Source: a virus | DNA length: 64,000 bases | Reading direction: 5' to 3' (one strand) | IMG/VR virus record: IMGVR_UViG_3300025914_000009 | Location: 1 to 64,000 of that record | Shown: piece by piece, positions 42,921 to 59,855 of the stretch | Layout: each line of letters begins with the position of its first letter | Position numbering within the stretch: the first letter of the stretch is position 1 | Translations under genes and position numbers: made by a program | The notes under the pieces: generated by a model | Database searches by the model: none | What the model saw: only the letters and a program-made list of their open reading frames with translations | What the model was told of the DNA's origin: nothing

Positions 42921-45017
42921 TTATATAAATAATTTTGATCTTCTTCTACCATTATTATATCTGATTGGAGAAGAGTTTGAGAAGTCGATTACTTTGTTTG
43001 TGCTTTTTTGTCCCTTGAAGTAAGCTTCAAATCTGGGATCTTTCTTTTCTGTGGATACTACGAACTGTGGATTAAGATGATCCGCCAGGGCAATGGCCAG
43101 CTCCGCAGCTACTATACGGTCATAGTTCCCTTCCTCTGAGTTGAAGTTAATAATTTCTTCCAAGAGCATAGGATCAAATACTCTGGTTACTCCCAGGGTC
43201 TCTATATTCTTCTCCTCTTCTCTGAAGATGACATCATCCAGATAAGATTTAAGTAGACCATCCAGGTGGTTCCTGATCCTATCACTCGATCTATGAATAC
43301 CATAATCCCTTCTAACTGAGGTATTTGGAACTATTTCTCTAAGCCAGCTCGGTTGAGGGGCCAGGTATCTTGCAGCTTCTCCTTTCTTGAGCATATAATC
43401 TATAAAGCTATACTCATCATTTTCACAAAGGGTATAGGCATTATAGTACTTAATGAGGAGTCTGGCAGTCTCATTCCACTTGTCTTTACTATCTGGCCTG
43501 GCTACATAAGAAGCTACAAATAGGTTTTGATATCTATCCGAGGCAATGTCATGTACCCTTTTAAAGATATACACTGCCCCAAGGGAGTCTGAATATTCAG
43601 ATCTACTCTGTCTATAAGGGTCAACTCCAGCTGTATAGAGTCCGAATGGTGGTTCATCATCTATTGGGAACTCCCAAATGACTGGAGGAGCATCAAGTGA
43701 AGTTGTGCTATCTGCAGGAAACTTGCTGATTGGTAGTTTATCACTGAACTTATGGCAAATCTTTTCTCCATCATGATATAAGTCTACCGGAGTACCAGTC
43801 TTCCCAAGGGCAGTAAGTCTATTCTTTTGAGCTTTAGCAGCTTCGATATTAAAGTCATTCTTTGTAAGAACCAGGAAGCTATCAGATGGAACCAGAGGCC
43901 AGAAGGCTTTGAACTTCAATACAGTCTTCTGATTACCAGATTTTATAGCTCTTGCATATTCTTTTTCCCACCACTCCCTAGCCTTCTCATAGTTGGTTAC
44001 CAGAATGGTAATTCTTTCTAAGTCAGGGTGTTGTATTCCCAAATAATCAGATAGCTTCATTGGATCCTTGTACTTGATCTTAGCCATTAAGGCATCAATG
44101 AATCTACCCATCTTTGTTCCTGGTATTTCAGGATTATCAAAGGGGAGTATGTTATAGGCTTCAGGGTGAAGGAACACTTCAGATGCCTCTTTACCTTTTT
44201 CCATATCACCCCCAGTGCCTGCTATCATAGCAAGACAGGAAGGTTTATCTTCTTTGGATGTACCAGACCACCAGGCACCTTCAGAGTCTTTGAAACAGGC
44301 AATGAAGTTTCTAATGGTACCAATTTCATCTATAAGATGGAAACCAGGTCTAGCTCCTACTGCTGCATCGCTCTTTGATCCTTCTTCAAAGTTTCTTATC
44401 TGTATAGATGATTGAGAAGATAAAGGAGATGTTATCCCTGTCTTCTTATCTTTCCAACCAGCCTTTATTTCTTTTTTCCAGTCATTAACAATCCTTTGCT
44501 TCTGCAGGATTGGATGTAGATTGATCAGACCATCTTCTACCTTATCAGTAGCAAGCTTGATATATGTACCATTACCTGCACTGATGATAGCTTCTGATTT
44601 GTCAAAGAGAGTGTACTGATAACCAGCTCTTGAGCCAGCCATGATAGATTTCCCGAAGTCACGAGATCCAACCAGGGCATAGAACTTACCTTTCTGTTCA
44701 CATTGAGTAAAGTCATCAGCTATTATCCACTCAATGTCCCTGAGATAGGGAGTATCAATAATTCTGATCTTCTTATTAAGTCTTTCATTTTCAATGTACA
44801 TGGCGATTTTCCAGTACACTGTGTGCCAATAGAGCCATCCAGAAATGTATACTTTCCCATCTGCCAGATAAAAGCCTTCCTTCATCCTACGCTTTTCTTC
44901 AGTCCAGTACTCCCTAAAGGTTTCCATAGCTGCTTCATCTGTAGGATCGTAAATAGGTTCTACCTGGTCGGGGAACCAAATGTTTTTAGTTTTCTGGGTA
45001 TACTTCTGGTCTATCAT
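42921..45017 (-). CDS. Terminase large subunit
   Basis: Walker A GSRDFGKS; Walker B HLIDEIG; GTGG; nuclease AGVDPY and YDRIVA. Confidence 0.92.
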   Translation of the reverse strand: MIDQKYTQKTKNIWFPDQVEPIYDPTDEAAMETFREYWTEEKRRMKEGFYLADGKVYISGWLYWHTVYWKIAMYIENERLNKKIRIIDTPYLRDIEWIIADDFTQCEQKGKFYALVGSRDFGKSIMAGSRAGYQYTLFDKSEAIISAGNGTYIKLATDKVEDGLINLHPILQKQRIVNDWKKEIKAGWKDKKTGITSPLSSQSSIQIRNFEEGSKSDAAVGARPGFHLIDEIGTIRNFIACFKDSEGAWWSGTSKEDKPSCLAMIAGTGGDMEKGKEASEVFLHPEAYNILPFDNPEIPGTKMGRFIDALMAKIKYKDPMKLSDYLGIQHPDLERITILVTNYEKAREWWEKEYARAIKSGNQKTVLKFKAFWPLVPSDSFLVLTKNDFNIEAAKAQKNRLTALGKTGTPVDLYHDGEKICHKFSDKLPISKFPADSTTSLDAPPVIWEFPIDDEPPFGLYTAGVDPYRQSRSEYSDSLGAVYIFKRVHDIASDRYQNLFVASYVARPDSKDKWNETARLLIKYYNAYTLCENDEYSFIDYMLKKGEAARYLAPQPSWLREIVPNTSVRRDYGIHRSSDRIRNHLDGLLKSYLDDVIFREEEKNIETLGVTRVFDPMLLEEIINFNSEEGNYDRIVAAELAIALADHLNPQFVVSTEKKDPRFEAYFKGQKSTNKVIDFSNSSPIRYNNGRRRSKLFI

Positions 45018-46290: not shown

Positions 46291-46648
46291 ATCCTCCCTT
46301 TTTGGTTTTCATATAGGCAACTGTGGCCTTGAGCTTTTCCATCATGTTATTCCAAGTCTCCATATTCCTGATTTCCTCAGGTCTATCTTTAAGCTTAGCT
46401 TCCATATTGAAGATAAGTATTTCCAACTTCTGTATCTTCCTTCTAATCTTATTAGGAGAGGTCATGAACTTTCCAAATCCTGAGATCTCTACCTGTTCAT
46501 GATCTACCATTGCATCTCTTGCATCTTTAAACTGAAACATAATAACTTTCTCTACTATGTCTTCAGGAACTAAGGTCTTTATAGCAGTCCTTGTTATAAG
46601 AACACCTTTCAACTTGTCAGCATCTATACTACTCTGATTCTTTTGCAC
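46274..46648 (-). CDS. HU/IHF-like protein
   Basis: EDIVEKVI...QVEISGFGKF HU signature. Confidence 0.7.
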   Translation of the reverse strand: MQKNQSSIDADKLKGVLITRTAIKTLVPEDIVEKVIMFQFKDARDAMVDHEQVEISGFGKFMTSPNKIRRKIQKLEILIFNMEAKLKDRPEEIRNMETWNNMMEKLKATVAYMKTKKGGYENKS

Positions 46649-46988
46649 TTCCTGCCAGGTTTATTTGTAACTGAATATCTTTTGAAAAGTCAAGAGCAAT
46701 CTTTGGATTCACTCTATATTTCATATCTATCTGTACAAGAAAGCCAGCCTTCACAAGTTCCTGCTTCATATTCTCCAGAGATGCAAGTGAGCTATTAAAC
46801 ATCTCAACAAACTCCTTTCTAGCCGCAGGGGATGTTATGCTCCCTCGGGCAGCTGTGAATGCCAGGAGGTATAGCTGCTTTTGTGGAAGTCTTACTTCAT
46901 TCAGAGCAAGCAGTACAGAATAATACTTTATTGCCTTTTCCACCTCAGTAGCTACCTCTCTTCGTATTTTCTGCACAATTACCTTCAT
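46629..46988 (-). CDS. Winged-helix (RepL-like) DNA-binding protein
   Basis: RKEFVEMFNSSLASLENMKQELVKAGFL...YRVNPKI. Confidence 0.65.
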   Translation of the reverse strand: MKVIVQKIRREVATEVEKAIKYYSVLLALNEVRLPQKQLYLLAFTAARGSITSPAARKEFVEMFNSSLASLENMKQELVKAGFLVQIDMKYRVNPKIALDFSKDIQLQINLAGSAKESE

Positions 46989-47007
46989 GTAGCTTGGTTT
47001 TCTTTTA

Positions 47008-47015
47008 CAAAGTTA
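47008..47015 (-). promoter_or_regulatory. -7 box of the promoter for the packaging operon
   Basis: TAACTTTG about 20 nt upstream of ATG 46988; no clear -33. Confidence 0.5.
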
Positions 47016-47062
47016 TGGGCTTTTTTGGAAGTAATATATAACTCTTTGGGATGTAATGCTAT

Positions 47063-47094
47063 AAAAAGCAAAAATCCTCCCAATATGAGAGGAT
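47063..47094 (-). terminator. Terminator closing the tRNA array
   Basis: ATCCTCTCA-TAT-TGGGAGGAT-TTTTGCTTTTT. Confidence 0.8.
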
Positions 47095-47098
47095 CTTG

Positions 47099-47170
47099 AG
47101 GCAGATATCTGAATCGAACAGATGTATAGGGCTTTTGCAGAACCCGACCTTTCCACTTGGCTAATCTGCC
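47099..47170 (-). tRNA. tRNA-Cys(GCA)
   Basis: Cloverleaf; anticodon loop CTGCAAA; U73. Confidence 0.9.
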
Positions 47171-47175
47171 TTATG

Positions 47176-47247
47176 CACGTATCGGGGGAATCGAACCCAG
47201 TCCTCCTACAGTTTTGGAGACTGCTTGGCCACCATGGCCTGACACGT
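47176..47247 (-). tRNA. tRNA-Trp(CCA)
   Basis: Loop CTCCAAA; G73; weak T-stem. Confidence 0.85.
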
Positions 47248-47253
47248 GTGTAG

Positions 47254-47324
47254 ACTACCCTGCAAGATTCGAACTTGCGTTCTAACATCCGTAGTGTTGA
47301 GTCCTTCCACTGAACGAAGGGTAG
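47254..47324 (-). tRNA. tRNA-Arg(ACG)
   Basis: Loop CTACGGA; T-loop TTCGAAT. Confidence 0.9.
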
Positions 47325-47397
47325 TGGGGTGGAGTGCAGAGTCGAACTGCCTTACCTGGTTCACAGCCAAGTCCATTCACCGAATTGGTATCTCCAC
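47325..47397 (-). tRNA. tRNA-His(GTG), encoded CCA, atypical acceptor/T junction
   Basis: Loop CTGTGAA; C73-CCA. Confidence 0.8.
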
Positions 47398-47399
47398 AG

Positions 47400-47471
47400 A
47401 TGCCCCTGGAGGAATCGAACCTACCATCATGAGATCCAAAAGCTCACGCCCTTCCATTGTGCTAAGGGGCA
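47400..47471 (-). tRNA. tRNA-Gln(TTG)
   Basis: Loop TTTTGGA; U1-A72; 31-39 mismatch. Confidence 0.85.
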
Positions 47472-47482
47472 TTAAAAAAATG

Positions 47483-47554
47483 TGGTACAGAGTGGACTTG
47501 AACCACCAACGCCCAGCTCTTCAGGCTGGCGCTCTACATTGGAGCTACTGCACC
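47483..47554 (-). tRNA. tRNA-Phe(GAA)
   Basis: CCAGC-CTGAAGA-GCTGG. Confidence 0.9.
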
Positions 47555-47559
47555 ATATG

Positions 47560-47631
47560 AGCCTGAGCAGGAACTCGAATCCTGTTCTGATGCTTACAAG
47601 GCAACTGCACCACCATCAGTGCTTCTCAGGC
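47560..47631 (-). tRNA. tRNA-Thr(TGT)
   Basis: Loop CTTGTAA; GCC acceptor start. Confidence 0.88.
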
Positions 47632-47636
47632 TTATG

Positions 47637-47712
47637 TTGGGTGAATAGGATTCGAACCTACGCTTTCAGCCTCCCAAAGGCTGCCGGAAAAACCTGGCTT
47701 CCGTACCACCCA
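47637..47712 (-). tRNA. tRNA-Pro(TGG)
   Basis: CAGCC-TTTGGGA-GGCTG; A73. Confidence 0.9.
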
Positions 47713-47716
47713 ATAT

Positions 47717-47752
47717 AAAAGAAAAACCCCCAGTCTTGGTAGAAAGGGGGTT
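47717..47752 (-). terminator. Attenuator terminator of tRNA operon A
   Basis: AACCCCC...GGGGGTT plus TTTCTTTT, 4 nt before tRNA-Pro; 5' arm complementary to the leader ORF. Confidence 0.8.
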
Positions 47753-47773
47753 GACATGCAAGAGCTTTATATC

Positions 47774-47848
47774 CTATACATACATGACAACTCCCTTCCC
47801 TGGTTGAGGGCAGAAGGTAAACCACGTATGACGAAATACTTTATTCAT
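47774..47848 (-). CDS. Leader peptide A, MNKVFRHTWFTFCPQPGKGVVMYV
   Basis: 25 codons between promoter and terminator; codons 5-16 match the 8 downstream tRNAs. Confidence 0.85.
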   Translation of the reverse strand: MNKVFRHTWFTFCPQPGKGVVMYV

Positions 47849-47852
47849 AATG

Positions 47853-47884
47853 CAAATATATGGTGAATATTTTAATCCACCAAA
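47853..47884 (-). promoter_or_regulatory. Promoter of tRNA operon A
   Basis: TTTG-N20-TATATTTG, full Bacteroidota consensus. Confidence 0.85.
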
Positions 47885-47890
47885 AAAAAG

Positions 47891-47975
47891 TTGCACAGGT
47901 CAGATTCGAACTGACAAAGGCTAAAGCCCCGAGTTTTACAGACTCAGAAGGATCTCCCACTCCTGTCGCAGTGCA
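47891..47975 (-). tRNA. tRNA-Tyr(GTA)
   Basis: Loop CTGTAAA; long variable arm; A73. Confidence 0.85.
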
Positions 47976-47982
47976 ATGTAAG

Positions 47983-48065
47983 AGGAGAGCAGTGGCCCTG
48001 ATCCACATCCCCGAGGGAACAGTCAGCTTAGCAGGCTGCTCCTACATCGTGTAGGTTTACTCTCC
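47983..48065 (-). tRNA. tRNA-Ser(GCT), non-canonical T-loop
   Basis: GGAGAG acceptor; loop CTGCTAA; variable arm; T-loop ATCAGGG. Confidence 0.78.
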
Positions 48066-48072
48066 TTATAAG

Positions 48073-48165
48073 AGGAAGGCTGAGGACTCGAACCCCACTC
48101 CTGCTCATCGCCGAGCCCTAGTTTTCAAGACTAGTCGCCGCTCCTGTGCAGCTGCATAACCTTCC
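48073..48165 (-). tRNA. tRNA-Ser(TGA)
   Basis: CTAGT-CTTGAAA-ACTAG; long variable arm. Confidence 0.9.
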
Positions 48166-48171
48166 TTATAG

Positions 48172-48245
48172 TATCCCTGGTAGGACTTGAACCTACAGAA
48201 CTCAGATTTTAAGTCTGATATGGTTACCTATTACATCACAGGGAT
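48172..48245 (-). tRNA. tRNA-Leu(TAA), short variable loop
   Basis: TCAGA-CTTAAAA-TCTGA; A73. Confidence 0.85.
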
Positions 48246-48250
48246 AAGTG

Positions 48251-48323
48251 TACCGAGGATGGGATTCGAACCCACACTTTTCAGTTCCTAAGACTGTTGC
48301 CTCTCCCGTTGGGCTACCAAGGT
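48251..48323 (-). tRNA. tRNA-Leu(TAG), short variable loop
   Basis: Loop CTTAGGA; A73; two acceptor mismatches. Confidence 0.82.
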
Positions 48324-48327
48324 ATGT

Positions 48328-48362
48328 AAAACAAAAAACCCAGCTGTAGAAACAGACTGGGC
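48328..48362 (-). terminator. Attenuator terminator of tRNA operon B
   Basis: GCCCAG(T)CTGT-TTCT-ACAGCTGGGT plus TTTTTGTTTT. Confidence 0.85.
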
Positions 48363-48385
48363 TAAAAAATAAAGTCTAATGAACT

Positions 48386-48454
48386 TTACATACTATACCC
48401 AGCCTGTCTGTGTAACAGGAGTGAACTGGAATAGTATGATAGAAGATTGAACAT
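48386..48454 (-). CDS. Leader peptide B, MFNLLSYYSSSLLLHRQAGYSM
   Basis: 23 codons; codons 4-14 are all Leu/Ser/Tyr. Confidence 0.88.
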   Translation of the reverse strand: MFNLLSYYSSSLLLHRQAGYSM

Positions 48455-48458
48455 GATG

Positions 48459-48490
48459 CAAATGTAATAACTCTTTTTGAATTTTCCAAA
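48459..48490 (-). promoter_or_regulatory. Promoter of tRNA operon B
   Basis: TTTG-N20-TACATTTG. Confidence 0.85.
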
Positions 48491-48499
48491 TAATTCTAG

Positions 48500-48573
48500 T
48501 GGAGCTAAAGAGAATCGAACTCTTCTCAGGCTCCTTGCAAGGGAGCTTCGCCAGCCTTGGAACATGTAACCCC
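48500..48573 (-). tRNA. tRNA-Ala(TGC)
   Basis: Loop CTTGCAA; G3:U70; A73. Confidence 0.92.
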
Positions 48574-48679
48574 TAAATCTGAAGCATAACCTTTCTACCT
48601 TCTCTGTAAACAGCTTTATTACAGTTATGAAATTGTATACCAGTAGATTGTACATGCTCCAGAGGTTCTTTCAAACCAG

Positions 48680-48752
48680 TTGCCTGAGGTGGGATCGAAC
48701 CACCAGCCTTCTTCGTATCAGGAAGTTGCTCAGACCATTGAGCTACCAGGCA
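48680..48752 (-). tRNA. tRNA-Ile(GAT)
   Basis: Loop CTGATAC; A73. Confidence 0.9.
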
Positions 48753-48844
48753 ATTTGATATAGGGGAAGAGGTGGTTCTTACACAGCCCACCTTCAGAAG
48801 TGTGCTTCTTCCAGGTTTTCACCCTCCCCCACTATATCTTCTAG

Positions 48845-48918
48845 TTGTCCCTAAGGGAGTTGAACCCTTGATCTTCTCATTATGAGTGAGCTGCTCTGAC
48901 CACCTGAGCTAAGGGACG
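48845..48918 (-). tRNA. tRNA-Ile2(CAT), probable lysidine type reading ATA
   Basis: CCCTTAGCTCAG..GGTCAGAGCAG..ACTCATAAT resembles bacterial Ile2; C4-G69 and C5-G68. Confidence 0.75.
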
Positions 48919-48925
48919 ATTTGAG

Positions 48926-48998
48926 CCGAGAGTGGGGGATTCGAACCCCAACCTTCACCTTGACAGGGTGATACTGCAGCCATTACACCACACCCTCG
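48926..48998 (-). tRNA. tRNA-Asp(GTC)
   Basis: TCACC-CTGTCAA-GGTGA; G73. Confidence 0.9.
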
Positions 48999-49087
48999 GA
49001 TTAGCCACATGCCGGACAATTACTTGACTGCTGTTAGAAACCAGCTGGTTTCCATCTTTTTTGTCCGCATGTAGCTTTAATTATTTG

Positions 49088-49161
49088 TACTCCCAGTGGG
49101 AATTGAACCCTACATTTTTACCTTGAAAGGGTAATGTCCTTACCATTTAGACGATGGGAGC
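49088..49161 (-). tRNA. tRNA-Glu(TTC)
   Basis: TTACC-CTTTCAA-GGTAA. Confidence 0.9.
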
Positions 49162-49182
49162 ATAGCTCCTCACCCTCCTTTA

Positions 49183-49395
49183 TTACATTAGCCATCTTAT
49201 CAATAGTTTAGCCTCCATTACTGGAAGAAATTTCGCATCCTGTATGTCCCCCAGGGGAATGGAGAAATTAATGATTCCATCAATAGAACCTGTCCAAAGG
49301 TTAGTCATGTACAGCATCCTTTCTTTATCCACATACAAAAGCTCAGCCTTTGGATTTTTCTTATACAACTCCTTTTTAATTTCATTTAGTTCCAT
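49183..49395 (-). CDS. Hypothetical 70-aa protein inside tRNA operon C (start MELNEIKK)
   Basis: The track start overlaps tRNA-Gly; ATG 49395 lies just 3' of it. Confidence 0.75.
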   Translation of the reverse strand: MELNEIKKELYKKNPKAELLYVDKERMLYMTNLWTGSIDGIINFSIPLGDIQDAKFLPVMEAKLLIRWLM

Positions 49396-49396
49396 G

Positions 49397-49467
49397 AGCA
49401 CCAACAGGGAGTCGAACCCTGCTCTCAGGCTTGGAAGGCTAGTGCATTACCGAAATGCTTCTGGTGC
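49397..49467 (-). tRNA. tRNA-Gly(TCC)
   Basis: Loop CTTCCAA; U73. Confidence 0.88.
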
Positions 49468-49515
49468 ATAGAGGGGGACAGGTTATTTAATCCTTTAAGG
49501 GACTCCCCCAGACCC

Positions 49516-49593
49516 TGGTTGCGGGAGAGGGAATCGAACCCTCGTAGTTCAGCTTATGAGACTGAGCTGGCACCATCTCCAGTCTACCCCGCA
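49516..49593 (-). tRNA. tRNA-Met(CAT), fMet-like acceptor, encoded CCA
   Basis: TGCGGGG...TCCCGCAACCA; loop CTCATAA; lacks the three G-C anticodon-stem pairs. Confidence 0.85.
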
Positions 49594-49841
49594 ATCTTTA
49601 ATTGTTTCTTTTCCTCCTCTGTCAAATCATAATCCTCTTTTACCAAAGTCAAAATTAAGTTAAGTTCCTCAGCAAATCTAATTCTTCCTCTAAAGACTAT
49701 TTCATCAAACCTCTTATTTCTGATAGACACTATACTAAAATCATGAGAGTCATTTTTTAATATAGTTATCTGATAAGAATCATCATGAAACTGCCATGGC
49801 AACCTCTGCTCGAAACCTAGTTCTAACAAGTGCTCTTTCAT
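49584..49841 (-). CDS. Hypothetical 85-aa protein inside tRNA operon C
   Basis: ORF fills the Asn-Met spacer; its stop lies inside the tRNA-Met 5' end. Confidence 0.7.
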   Translation of the reverse strand: MKEHLLELGFEQRLPWQFHDDSYQITILKNDSHDFSIVSIRNKRFDEIVFRGRIRFAEELNLILTLVKEDYDLTEEEKKQLKIAG

Positions 49842-49842
49842 G

Positions 49843-49915
49843 AGGACAGTTTAGGGATCGAACCTAAGACCTAAGAGTTAACAGCTCTTTGCTACTGCCA
49901 CTGAGCTAACTGTCC
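49843..49915 (-). tRNA. tRNA-Asn(GTT)
   Basis: AAGAG-CTGTTAA-CTCTT. Confidence 0.9.
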
Positions 49916-49959
49916 ATTTCCAGTTTTGTACTCCACGCAGATACTGGTAAACTGACCTG

Positions 49960-50031
49960 AGGACTTACAAGGAATCCAACCTTGATAGCTTGCTTAGAAG
50001 GCAAGAGCTCTATGCATTGAGCTATAAGTCC
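49960..50031 (-). tRNA. tRNA-Arg(TCT)
   Basis: CTTGC-CTTCTAA-GCAAG; T-loop TTGGATT. Confidence 0.85.
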
Positions 50032-50034
50032 ATG

Positions 50035-50107
50035 TTGTCCCACTTAGAATCGAACTAAGGTCGCTAGTTTGTAAGACTAGAGCACTCAACCACTGTGCTA
50101 TAGGACA
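50035..50107 (-). tRNA. tRNA-Val(TAC)
   Basis: CTAGT-CTTACAA-ACTAG. Confidence 0.9.
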
Positions 50108-50113
50108 ATCTTG

Positions 50114-50185
50114 TTCCCCTGGAAGGGCTCGAACCTTCAACCTTCTCCTTAAGAGGGAGTAGCTCTACCATTAAGCTACAGAGGA
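50114..50185 (-). tRNA. tRNA-Lys(CTT)
   Basis: Loop CTCTTAA. Confidence 0.9.
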
Positions 50186-50197
50186 ATTTTATCTCTG

Positions 50198-50268
50198 TAC
50201 CCCCACCAAGGATCGAACTTGGTTCCACTGGTTAAAAGCCAGTTACTTCACCATAAAGCTTTGAGGGT
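50198..50268 (-). tRNA. tRNA-Lys(TTT)
   Basis: ACTGG-CTTTTAA-CCAGT. Confidence 0.9.
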
Positions 50269-50274
50269 AATTGT

Positions 50275-50311
50275 AAACAAAAATCCCCAGAGCTTATGGG
50301 CTCCAGGGACT
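50275..50311 (-). terminator. Attenuator terminator of tRNA operon C
   Basis: GTCCCTGGAGC-CCATAA-GCTCTGGGGAT plus TTTTGTTT. Confidence 0.88.
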
Positions 50312-50334
50312 CTTGTTTGCTGTTTATAAACCTG

Positions 50335-50415
50335 TTAATTAGCAGACAGTGGAATCCCTGGAGCAGATTTCTCTGCACCTCTTACAATCCCATTATCCAC
50401 TATTGAGTAAAACAT
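50335..50415 (-). CDS. Leader peptide C, MFYSIVDNGIVRGAEKSAPGIPLSAN
   Basis: 27 codons; codons 5-16 match the downstream tRNAs; A-rich 5' UTR. Confidence 0.85.
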   Translation of the reverse strand: MFYSIVDNGIVRGAEKSAPGIPLSAN

Positions 50416-50438
50416 TGTTTGCTTTTTTAAGATTTTAG

Positions 50439-50470
50439 CAAATATAATACCACTTTTTGACATGGCCAAA
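50439..50470 (-). promoter_or_regulatory. Promoter of tRNA operon C
   Basis: TTTG-N20-TATATTTG. Confidence 0.85.
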
Positions 50471-50478
50471 TAATTCCA

Positions 50479-50898
50479 CTACTTTTTTTCTCCTAGCTCC
50501 CCTGGGGAAGATAGCTGATTAGAGTCACAAATTATACCCAGGACTGGCTGACCTATCTTCCCTGAACTCTGCCTCTTCTCCATAAACTCATCCAGCTTAG
50601 CTTCAAACTTCTTCCTTGGCCAGGTACACACAAACTCTCCATACATATCACTGACCACAATAGTCAGATCAAATCCTCCTTCAGCTACCTCCTCTACCTT
50701 CCTCTCTCTGGAAAATCCATCATGCCACATAAGCTTATGAAGATCTCTGGCAGGTATCCTAACCCAACCAGTAATCCAATCTATTGGCACAGGCTCCTCA
50801 GTAGTATCTTTATCTTCCTGTTCCATAGCCTTCTTAACAGAGAATCCATCATATATCTTCATAGGAAAGCTAAAGAACTCTTCAGTGAATTTACCCAT
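50479..50898 (-). CDS. Hypothetical 139-aa protein, weak LytTR/FlbD-like pattern
   Basis: ORF track; own promoter; VRIPARDL...LTIVVSDMYGEFVCTWPRKKFEAKL. Confidence 0.65.
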   Translation of the reverse strand: MGKFTEEFFSFPMKIYDGFSVKKAMEQEDKDTTEEPVPIDWITGWVRIPARDLHKLMWHDGFSRERKVEEVAEGGFDLTIVVSDMYGEFVCTWPRKKFEAKLDEFMEKRQSSGKIGQPVLGIICDSNQLSSPGELGEKK

Positions 50899-50913
50899 AC
50901 TTTATATTTTATT

Positions 50914-50945
50914 CAAAGGTAATACGTTATAGTGGAATTTCCAAA
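50914..50945 (-). promoter_or_regulatory. Promoter with ACTATAACGTA in its spacer
   Basis: TTTG-N20-TACCTTTG. Confidence 0.75.
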
Positions 50946-51771
50946 TGGTGAATAAGTGAGAGAGACCTGTCAGTACTTATAGTACTTGCCCCTGGGAGTA
51001 CTTGGAAGTTAATAGATTTGAGCCCCCTACTAACGGTAGGTATCAGAAAAACTCGGGGTTTTGTCTCATAGGCTTTTTATATAACCTATTGATATATAAT
51101 TACTTAATCCCAATATCTTCGGTTAACCATGTTTTAAAACTTATGTATATCTATGAGTATGATGGTGACACCATCCCTTGACCCCTTGGCAAAATCGTCG
51201 TGCTGGGGGTATCCCCCCATGACCCCTTGGGGAAAGTGCGATTCAGATTATGTCACATCGCCTTGAAAATCAAGGATTTATGTTTTAAGGAGTCGAACCA
51301 AAGCCAGAGGTTGGGAACCAGTAGTACCAATACAGCGTGAGGAAAGCTCCTTATACATATATATAATGGTATAACCCTAAAACCCCATCAACATGGTACT
51401 AACAGCAGTCATAACAACAGCTTTAATAGTCTCTGCATTCATTTGGAACCACAAGATGAACAGAGCTAAGTGATTGATACACAATGAATTGGGACGGTCA
51501 GAGAGAGTTTGAGTACACTTTACAACTCATAACTCTCTCATTTTCTATTACTTAGTTAACCTGATGAGGAATAGTATACATTATGGCATTTATTACACCA
51601 CTACATATATGTTATCTACTATATTCCCTTAGGGAGGATATAGATAACCTTTTAGAGCTCAATATTAAAATGGTCTTCAAGCAGGGCTAAAATACTGTGA
51701 ATACTACAGAAAACAGTAGTTAGTTGACCTATTTTCGAATTAAATTTCTTCAACAATAAAACATCAAGACA

Positions 51772-59590: not shown

Positions 59591-59663
59591 GGGTGTGTAG
59601 CTCAATGGATAGAGTGTCTGACTTCGGATCAGAAAGTTAAGGGTTCGAATCCCTTCATGCCCA
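59591..59663 (+). tRNA. tRNA-Arg(TCG)
   Basis: Canonical cloverleaf; TCTGA-CTTCGGA-TCAGA. Confidence 0.92.
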
Positions 59664-59855
59664 CAGGTTTTATGGCTAATGGTGTTTGATTAGTATTGCA
59701 AGAATTTAGCAATAATCAGTACTATTAAACGCGCCCTGAGTTTCTACTTGGGGCTCTTTTTTATTAACAAACTTAGTTTTTTTTTTAGAGCATATAATCG
59801 TTAGAGCCCTCTTGTGTCTACAGGAGGGCATTTTTAACCAAAAAAACCAAAAATT

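Follow-up and report, generated by a model that had tools for sequence, protein, structure and literature searches.

Leader-peptide attenuators are well known from the amino-acid operons of enterobacteria, where they regulate biosynthetic enzymes; those of ilvGMEDA and thr are multivalent, and trp, his, leu and pheA provide further examples. The pheST attenuator of E. coli, with pheM as its leader, controls an aminoacyl-tRNA synthetase and deals with one amino acid. T-box riboswitches (RF00230) bind uncharged tRNA without a ribosome; they rely on one specifier codon and on a T-box sequence that is conserved. Here we analysed a 64,000-nucleotide stretch of phage DNA (hereafter the window), the first 64 kb of IMG/VR virus record IMGVR_UViG_3300025914_000009, which is 124,983 bp in length and rated complete. 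An element within its tRNA gene array, unit B (48490-48328, minus strand), precedes five genes for Leu, Ser and Tyr tRNAs and is probably a ribosome-mediated (leader-peptide) transcription attenuator that gates these genes.

The tRNA array occupies 50268-47098 on the minus strand. ARAGORN called 21 tRNAs at its default threshold and 25 at a relaxed threshold, the latter adding Ala(tgc), Ser(tga), Ser(gct) and Trp(cca). Rfam gave weak tRNA-clan matches for 3 of these 4, among them Ser(tga) with 33.1 bits, and none for Ser(gct) at E<=1. The array is arranged in three blocks, A, B and C, which jointly provide tRNAs for all 20 amino acids, and each block is headed by its own leader unit (Table 1).

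Unit B resembles the attenuators of amino-acid operons in its short leader open reading frame (ORF), clustered codons, 1:2, 2:3 and 3:4 pairings and a terminator before the regulated genes, and in our folding model the position of the ribosome likewise selects the fold. Its downstream genes, however, are five tRNA genes and not genes for biosynthetic enzymes. Unit B therefore has the structure of the attenuator class but lacks the targets by which the class is recognized (biosynthesis, transport or aminoacyl-tRNA synthetases). Whereas operon attenuators carry a run of codons for one to three amino acids, the leaders described here devote one codon or a few to each of 5 (unit B), 8 (unit C) or 12 (unit A) tRNAs. 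They also differ in that the transcript is predicted to be leaderless and that no Rfam leader family is matched: cmscan of 46500-51000 at E<=1 reported neither a leader family (His, Leu, Thr, Trp) nor T-box RF00230, only tRNA-clan and chance plastid-UTR (untranslated region) matches. As in pheST, leader-peptide attenuation would act on the decoding apparatus and not on a biosynthetic pathway; unlike in pheST, the tRNA product would itself be the sensed molecule, so that the loop would be direct. As in T-box riboswitches, the status of tRNA would choose between terminator and antiterminator upstream of translation-related genes. In the literature searched, a scope that left subscription journals and supplements outside, we found no description of tRNA genes attenuated by a codon-matched leader.

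Unit B fills the 173-nucleotide (nt) gap between tRNA-Ala and tRNA-Leu(tag) and consists, in this order, of a promoter-like motif, an ATG, a 22-codon ORF, a GC-rich hairpin and a T-run, followed by tRNA-Leu(tag). An earlier reading of this DNA, made from the letters alone (hereafter the sequence-only reading), had proposed an attenuator at this position and listed codons 4-14 of the leader. The list proved exact, and the codon run, a switchable hairpin and alternative pairings were all found. The run comprises 5 Leu codons, all of them different, 4 Ser codons of three kinds, drawn from both boxes, and 2 Tyr codons, one of each kind. Assigning codons to blocks by standard wobble rules, with a U34 tRNA taken to read a whole four-codon box, we found every codon of the run to be cognate to the five tRNAs of block B (48323-47890, minus strand), as had been claimed; the two Ser tRNAs among them were called only at the relaxed threshold. 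All five tRNAs are represented in the leader, of whose 21 codons 13 are cognate to block B, 5 to block A and 3 to block C. In the six frames of the 124,983-bp genome, a run of at least 11 block-B-cognate codons occurs once, in leader B. When the same bases were read in the two shifted frames, the runs shrank to 1 and 2 codons.

The leaders of units A and C match their own blocks in the same manner. In leader A, 12 consecutive codons specify Ile, Val, Asp, Asn, Gly, Arg (AGA), Ala, Glu and Lys; the leader represents 11 of the 12 tRNAs of block A, Lys(ctt) being missed. The 12-codon run of leader C is made up of exactly the eight amino acids of block C, with Arg as CGT, and all 8 tRNAs are represented; a run of at least 12 block-C codons occurs nowhere else in the whole genome.

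The folding of leader B, as modelled, is that of a classical four-region attenuator. Leader B RNA had a folding z of -5.24, and 0 of 200 shuffles were as good. Free of ribosomes, its minimum-energy fold contained the 1:2 stem, a small hairpin and the terminator, the 1:2 stem (48438-48389) being present in the centroid fold as well. We then set the ribosomal A site at each codon in turn and hid that codon plus 12 nt. Masking at codons 3-12 flipped the fold from terminator to antiterminator, and masking from codon 13 to the stop brought the terminator back. With the ribosome at codon 8, 48409-48397 paired with 48363-48351 in the minimum-energy fold; the pairing of leader with terminator arm given in the sequence-only reading is thus real. 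The antiterminator duplex was calculated at -20.0 kcal/mol against a shuffle mean of -7.3, with 0 of 500 shuffles as good, and its upstream strand, region 2, ends 10 nt short of the end of the stop codon. In unit A, the corresponding duplex between the ORF tail and the terminator arm reached -25.5 kcal/mol, which no shuffle equalled.

Employing the terminase (42921-45017, minus strand) as a query, we retrieved 4 and then 52 viral-contig loci and 38 metagenome loci (L-numbers below denote these relatives). By terminase, the nearest deposited phage is Leptolyngbya phage Lbo-JY46 with 35% identity, followed by crAss-like phages with 26-28%. tRNA genes were located near the terminase in 9 viral and 8 metagenome loci. 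Leader-plus-terminator units were found in L004 (terminase 86% identical), L008/L058 (83%), L059 (81%), L066 (66%), L009 (58%), L031 and L041 (42%), L055 (38%), L033 (34%) and Lbo-JY46; L042, nearly a duplicate of L041, and the fragment L094 were left out. Lbo-JY46 (L095, PP438436.1, 116000-125312) is a cultured 125-kb phage with the same three promoter-leader-terminator units; our literature search turned up no paper on it. The feature table of crAss phage cr111_1 showed no comparable long gaps (the leaders themselves were not looked for).

The 26 units examined came from 11 sequences; of the 192 tRNAs in their blocks, 188 had a cognate codon in their own leader, compared to 115 and 116 of 192 when the leaders were read in the +1 and +2 frames. 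The four unrepresented tRNAs were Lys(ctt) twice, a doubtful Leu(aag) called at the relaxed threshold, and Arg(acg) in L059. Leaders of the six three-unit phages represented 130 of 133 tRNAs of their own block and 123 of 266 of the other blocks (Fisher p=5e-29, a value uncorrected for relatedness and inflated), and the true assignment of leaders to blocks outscored all 5 other permutations in 6 of 6. The peptides encoded by B leaders differ between phages, while their Leu/Ser/Tyr composition is kept, which argues against a conserved function of the peptide. Complementarity between the ORF tail and the 5' arm of the terminator exceeded that of 95% of shuffles in 19 of 24 units, including 4 of the 6 B-type units, and the complementary sequences differ from phage to phage. 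Masking flipped the terminator to the antiterminator in 10 of 18 units, unit B included; in 3 others the terminator finder had chosen the wrong hairpin. The distance from the end of the hairpin to the first tRNA, determined for 24 units, was 4-18 nt and amounted to 14 nt in unit B.

The strongest evidence is co-variation, because the blocks differ in content from relative to relative and the leaders change accordingly. Cys is confined to block C and leader C in the window; Lbo-JY46 has two Cys tRNAs in block A, with 6 Cys codons in leader A and 0 in leader C. In L033, Asp and Asn tRNAs are located in block C, and Asn codons occur 6 times, Asp codons 3 times and Arg codons not at all in leader C; Arg(acg) is located in block A, and leader A has AGA and CGC but neither Asp nor Asn. 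L041 carries Pro, Gln, His, Arg(acg), Leu, Leu, Ser, Ser and Tyr tRNAs in a single block, and its leader covers 9 of 9. The corresponding block of L031 contains Leu(tag) alone, and the Leu codons of its leader are CTN only. Met, Lys, Ile and Val tRNAs distinguish the last blocks of L031 and L041, and Ile, Val and extra Met codons are present only in the leader of L041. Taken as a real feature, unit B is strongly supported by the sequences, and the support is comparative.

The sequence-only reading had laid weight on the near-complete sampling of synonymous codons in leader B and had proposed their diversity in homologues as a check. Testing how many distinct codons the Leu/Ser/Tyr run contains against each phage's own codon usage, we obtained P values of 0.058 for the window (10 distinct codons of 11), 0.25 for L004, 0.013 for L009 and 0.96 for L033 (6 of 11). 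Coverage of all five codon boxes was also unremarkable for runs of this amino-acid composition (simulated P 0.32-0.64 per phage). Synonym diversity as a designed feature was therefore not upheld across phages; what is conserved is the presence of at least one codon for each tRNA of the block. The same reading held that the loss of individual isoacceptors is sensed rather than starvation. The first part gained some support from the Arg codons: leaders of Arg(tct) blocks contain 6 AGR and 0 CGN codons and those of Arg(acg) blocks 4 AGR and 7 CGN (Fisher p=0.035, relatedness uncorrected), and the sole leader whose block has both Arg tRNAs uses both Arg codon boxes. This suggests matching at the level of the tRNA species rather than the amino acid. 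As to the second part, a stalled ribosome is blind to the difference between tRNA loss and starvation, and exclusion of starvation as the signal can only be surmised. The claim that block B groups the three class II tRNA families was borne out for Ser and Tyr, which have long variable arms; it holds by family name only, because both Leu tRNAs have 5-nt variable loops. Leu(tag) and Leu(taa), 74 and 75 nt in length, have a class I shape and an A discriminator base. The short form of tRNA-Leu is also found in L004, L009, L033 and Lbo-JY46; L066, L079 and L093 have Leu tRNAs of 81-87 nt.

According to two reports, sigma-A promoters of Bacteroidota consist of TTTG near -33 and TAnnTTTG at -12 to -5 (PMC7366714, PMC9723704; the placement of the box at -12 to -5 is that of PMC9723704). 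A strict version of this motif, which is a Bacteroidota consensus and may not be that of the host, occurs 8 times in the genome, compared to a mean of 2.55 and a maximum of 6 in 20 Markov shuffles. Of these 8, 4 lie at 47853-50945 on the minus strand, in units A, B and C and before a 139-amino-acid ORF. The sigma-70 consensus was not enriched (7 found, 6.1 expected). The box ends 4 nt before the leader ATG in units B and C, and the same spacing was seen in 9 of the 14 units where the pattern found a box. Given the reported position of the box at -12 to -5, a 4-nt gap predicts a transcriptional start at the A of the ATG and hence a leaderless mRNA. Motif B may work as a promoter. Lbo-JY46 also carries a promoter motif of the Bacteroidota type.

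Several observations weigh against unit B as an attenuator of tRNA genes. L010, L075, L077, L079 and L093 have tRNA arrays, yet no leader-plus-terminator was present in the gaps inspected; the device is thus not universal in the clade. The comparative statistics are uncorrected for shared ancestry, and the window has close relatives in L004, L008 and L059, with terminases 81-86% identical. In leader B itself, 8 of the 21 codons lack a cognate tRNA in block B. Under masking, WIN_A, L031_1, L031_3, L041_3 and L008_C (5 of 18 units) never or almost never left the terminator state, and tail/arm complementarity was not above that of shuffles in 5 of 24 units (L009_B, 0.224; L031_3, 0.12; L008_C, 0.148; JY46_A, 0.554; JY46_B, 0.098). 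A simple terminator scan listed none of the three attenuator hairpins of the window. Leaderless or near-leaderless mRNAs were a minority in two Bacteroidota transcriptomes, at 3.7% and 5.5% (PMC7366714, PMC9723704). The motif is of the Bacteroidota type, yet Lbo-JY46 is recorded on the cyanobacterium Leptolyngbya boryana; either a polymerase other than one with Bacteroidota sigma-A reads the motif, or the host record of Lbo-JY46 deserves a second look.

Three other explanations were weighed against tRNA-gene attenuation. Unit B could be a classical attenuator sensing starvation for Leu, Ser and Tyr, with the tRNA genes as incidental cargo. It shares its architecture with the attenuators of amino-acid operons, and a ribosome stalls equally for a missing amino acid or a missing tRNA. 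An extra tRNA, however, gives no relief from amino-acid starvation, and tRNA and ORF calls placed no biosynthetic gene within the units. In addition, the three leaders cover all 20 amino acids and track the content of the blocks when tRNAs move, and Arg codon boxes follow the Arg isoacceptor present. We consider this explanation improbable. The absence of the hairpins from the terminator scan and the units without a significant antiterminator would suit another possibility, that unit B is a constitutive leaky terminator or insulator whose short ORF is untranslated or encodes an unrelated peptide, the codon match being a by-product. Such a match would hardly be confined to one frame, follow tRNAs relocated between blocks, form codon runs that are unique genome-wide for B and C, and keep its composition while the peptides vary among relatives; a leaky terminator is accordingly very unlikely.

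The leader triplets are complementary to the downstream anticodons, and T-box elements sense tRNA and control terminators; a ribosome-independent RNA switch, in which the triplets pair with the anticodons of free tRNAs in T-box fashion, was therefore considered as well. The Rfam scan described above gave no T-box or other cis-regulatory family, and in the units examined, the triplets share their reading frame with an ATG and a stop codon, except for the A leader of L009, which was read from GTG, and the Glu units of L031 and L041, which run into the tRNA. To our knowledge, there is no precedent for 11 to 23 adjacent specifiers. Among the explanations considered, we regard this switch as scarcely credible.

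If unit B attenuates tRNA genes, it would operate as follows. Transcription would begin at or next to the ATG or come in from block A, and a ribosome would translate the 22-codon leader. When charged tRNA is short, the ribosome would slow on any of the eleven Leu/Ser/Tyr codons and cover region 1. Region 2, thus freed, would pair with region 3 and block the terminator, so that the polymerase enters Leu(tag), Leu(taa), Ser(tga), Ser(gct) and Tyr(gta). With smooth decoding, the ribosome at the stop codon would cover region 2, and the 3:4 hairpin with its U-run would halt transcription 4 nt before the first tRNA. An untranslated leader would form both 1:2 and 3:4, and transcription would likewise stop. 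The outcome would be negative feedback, the phage making the block B set of tRNAs only while its codons are decoded slowly; units A and C would act alike on their own blocks. We infer the translation of the leader as well as the direction and size of this response. Because the T-run lies only 4 nt before tRNA-Leu, with no space the size of a promoter, block B would be expressed only by read-through. No terminator was found in the stretch from tRNA-Ala to promoter B, so that polymerases leaving block A would also meet attenuator B.

Table 1. Positions of the leader units, their predicted parts and the associated tRNA genes in the window
Feature	Position	Strand	Remarks
Promoter-like motif B	48490-48459	-	TTTG 48490-48487, 20-nt spacer, TAnnTTTG-type box 48466-48459; pattern match
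Leader ORF B, 22 codons + TAA	48454-48386	-	ATG at 48454, TAA 48388-48386
Putative sensor run, codons 4-14	48445-48413	-	Leu, Ser and Tyr codons
Stem 1:2, predicted anti-antiterminator	48438-48389	-	Minimum-energy fold, leader RNA nt 17-66; codons 6-10 and 3' part of ORF
Region 2, predicted upstream strand of antiterminator	48409-48397	-	Within ORF codons 16-20
Region 3	48363-48351	-	Common to predicted antiterminator and terminator 5' arm
Predicted terminator hairpin 3:4	48362-48338	-	About -14 to -15 kcal/mol, one bulged T
T-run, 9 T in 10	48337-48328	-	Directly 3' of hairpin; ends 4 nt ahead of tRNA-Leu(tag)
tRNA-Leu(tag)	48323-48250	-	ARAGORN default
tRNA-Leu(taa)	48245-48171	-	ARAGORN default
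tRNA-Ser(tga)	48165-48072	-	ARAGORN relaxed threshold; weak Rfam match
tRNA-Ser(gct)	48065-47982	-	ARAGORN relaxed threshold
tRNA-Tyr(gta)	47975-47890	-	ARAGORN default
Unit A	50470-50275	-	Gap before first tRNA of array; same build as B
Unit A parts	motif 50470-50439; 26-codon leader 50415-50335; terminator 50310-50283; T-run 50282-50275	-	
tRNA block A	50268-48499	-	Lys(ttt), Lys(ctt), Val, Arg(tct), Asn, Met(cat), Gly, Glu, Asp, Met(cat), Ile, Ala
Unit C	47884-47717	-	Gap between tRNA-Tyr and tRNA-Pro; same build as B
Unit C parts	motif 47884-47853; 24-codon leader 47848-47774; terminator 47751-47726; T-run 47725-47717	-	
tRNA block C	47712-47098	-	Pro, Thr, Phe, Gln, His, Arg(acg), Trp, Cys
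Terminator-like hairpin + T-run	47071-47097	-	Terminator scan; directly 3' of tRNA-Cys, end of array

The ORF listing places the frame of leader B in an 89-amino-acid ORF that starts at 48655 and crosses the tRNA-Ala gene. This tRNA-Ala(tgc) (48573-48499, minus strand) has an odd D arm, was missed by ARAGORN at default and is tmRNA-like in Rfam; it is about 81% identical over 87 nt to an annotated tRNA-Ala of Pseudomonas phages, for example VCM. In unit C, the spacer of the promoter-like motif (47882-47861, minus strand) is itself an 8-bp hairpin, and this hairpin is listed by the terminator scan. The fourth copy of the motif (50945-50914, minus strand) lies 15 nt before the ATG of the 139-amino-acid ORF (50898-50479, minus strand), which is located directly upstream of the array and whose product had no relatives in the viral contigs.

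Block A is interspersed with two ORFs (49841-49584 and 49404-49183, minus strand; 85 and 73 amino acids) and three structured spacers (48843-48753, 49086-48999 and 48678-48574, minus strand). The spacers are 88-105 nt in length and form long hairpins, with folding z of -3.4, -6.0 and -3.2, respectively; neither ARAGORN nor Rfam called them as tRNA. A 25-codon mini-ORF (49195-49118, minus strand) starts 34 nt before tRNA-Glu (49161-49087) and reads into that gene, with Lys-Glu-Gly-Glu-Glu-Leu encoded just ahead of the tRNA. L004 and L009 have the same stretch at an equal distance, with synonymous third-base changes, and in L031 and L041, Glu-rich ORFs that possess a promoter-like motif of their own run into tRNA-Glu. 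This type of mini-ORF was seen in 5 of 7 phages, L033 and Lbo-JY46 having none. Its Glu codons are complementary to the 5' acceptor strand of tRNA-Glu. The mini-ORF may represent a second, terminator-free coupling of Glu decoding to the maturation of tRNA-Glu.

A single tRNA-Arg(tcg) gene (59591-59664, plus strand) is located on the other strand, 9 kb from the array. Under our wobble rules, CGG is the only sense codon that the array itself does not read; together with this lone tRNA, the phage may be self-sufficient in decoding all sense codons. The region 47000-50600 was present only in DNA sequencing runs, from rhizosphere or soil; a look-up of RNA runs containing it gave none.

Phage tRNA genes have been proposed to compensate for codon usage, to replace degraded host tRNA, or to escape tRNA-cleaving defences, and why phages carry them and how they dose them are still debated. 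If our interpretation of unit B is true, tRNA genes would be attenuated by their own products, and leader-peptide attenuation would extend to targets whose product is the sensed molecule. The phage would measure decoding speed directly and make tRNA on demand, and the debate over phage tRNA genes would become a testable circuit. The unit would then be a natural modular sensor for the availability of individual tRNAs, and experiments are feasible in the cultured relative Lbo-JY46, which has the same three units. More tentatively, the three leaders might constitute a codon-resolved, three-channel monitor of the decoding capacity of the infected cell, each re-supplying the subset of tRNAs whose codons are slow; the phage could thereby detect and repair tRNA loss, for example by host anticodon nucleases or host tRNA decay. 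Such a monitor would be the sensing arm of a tRNA-based counter-defence.

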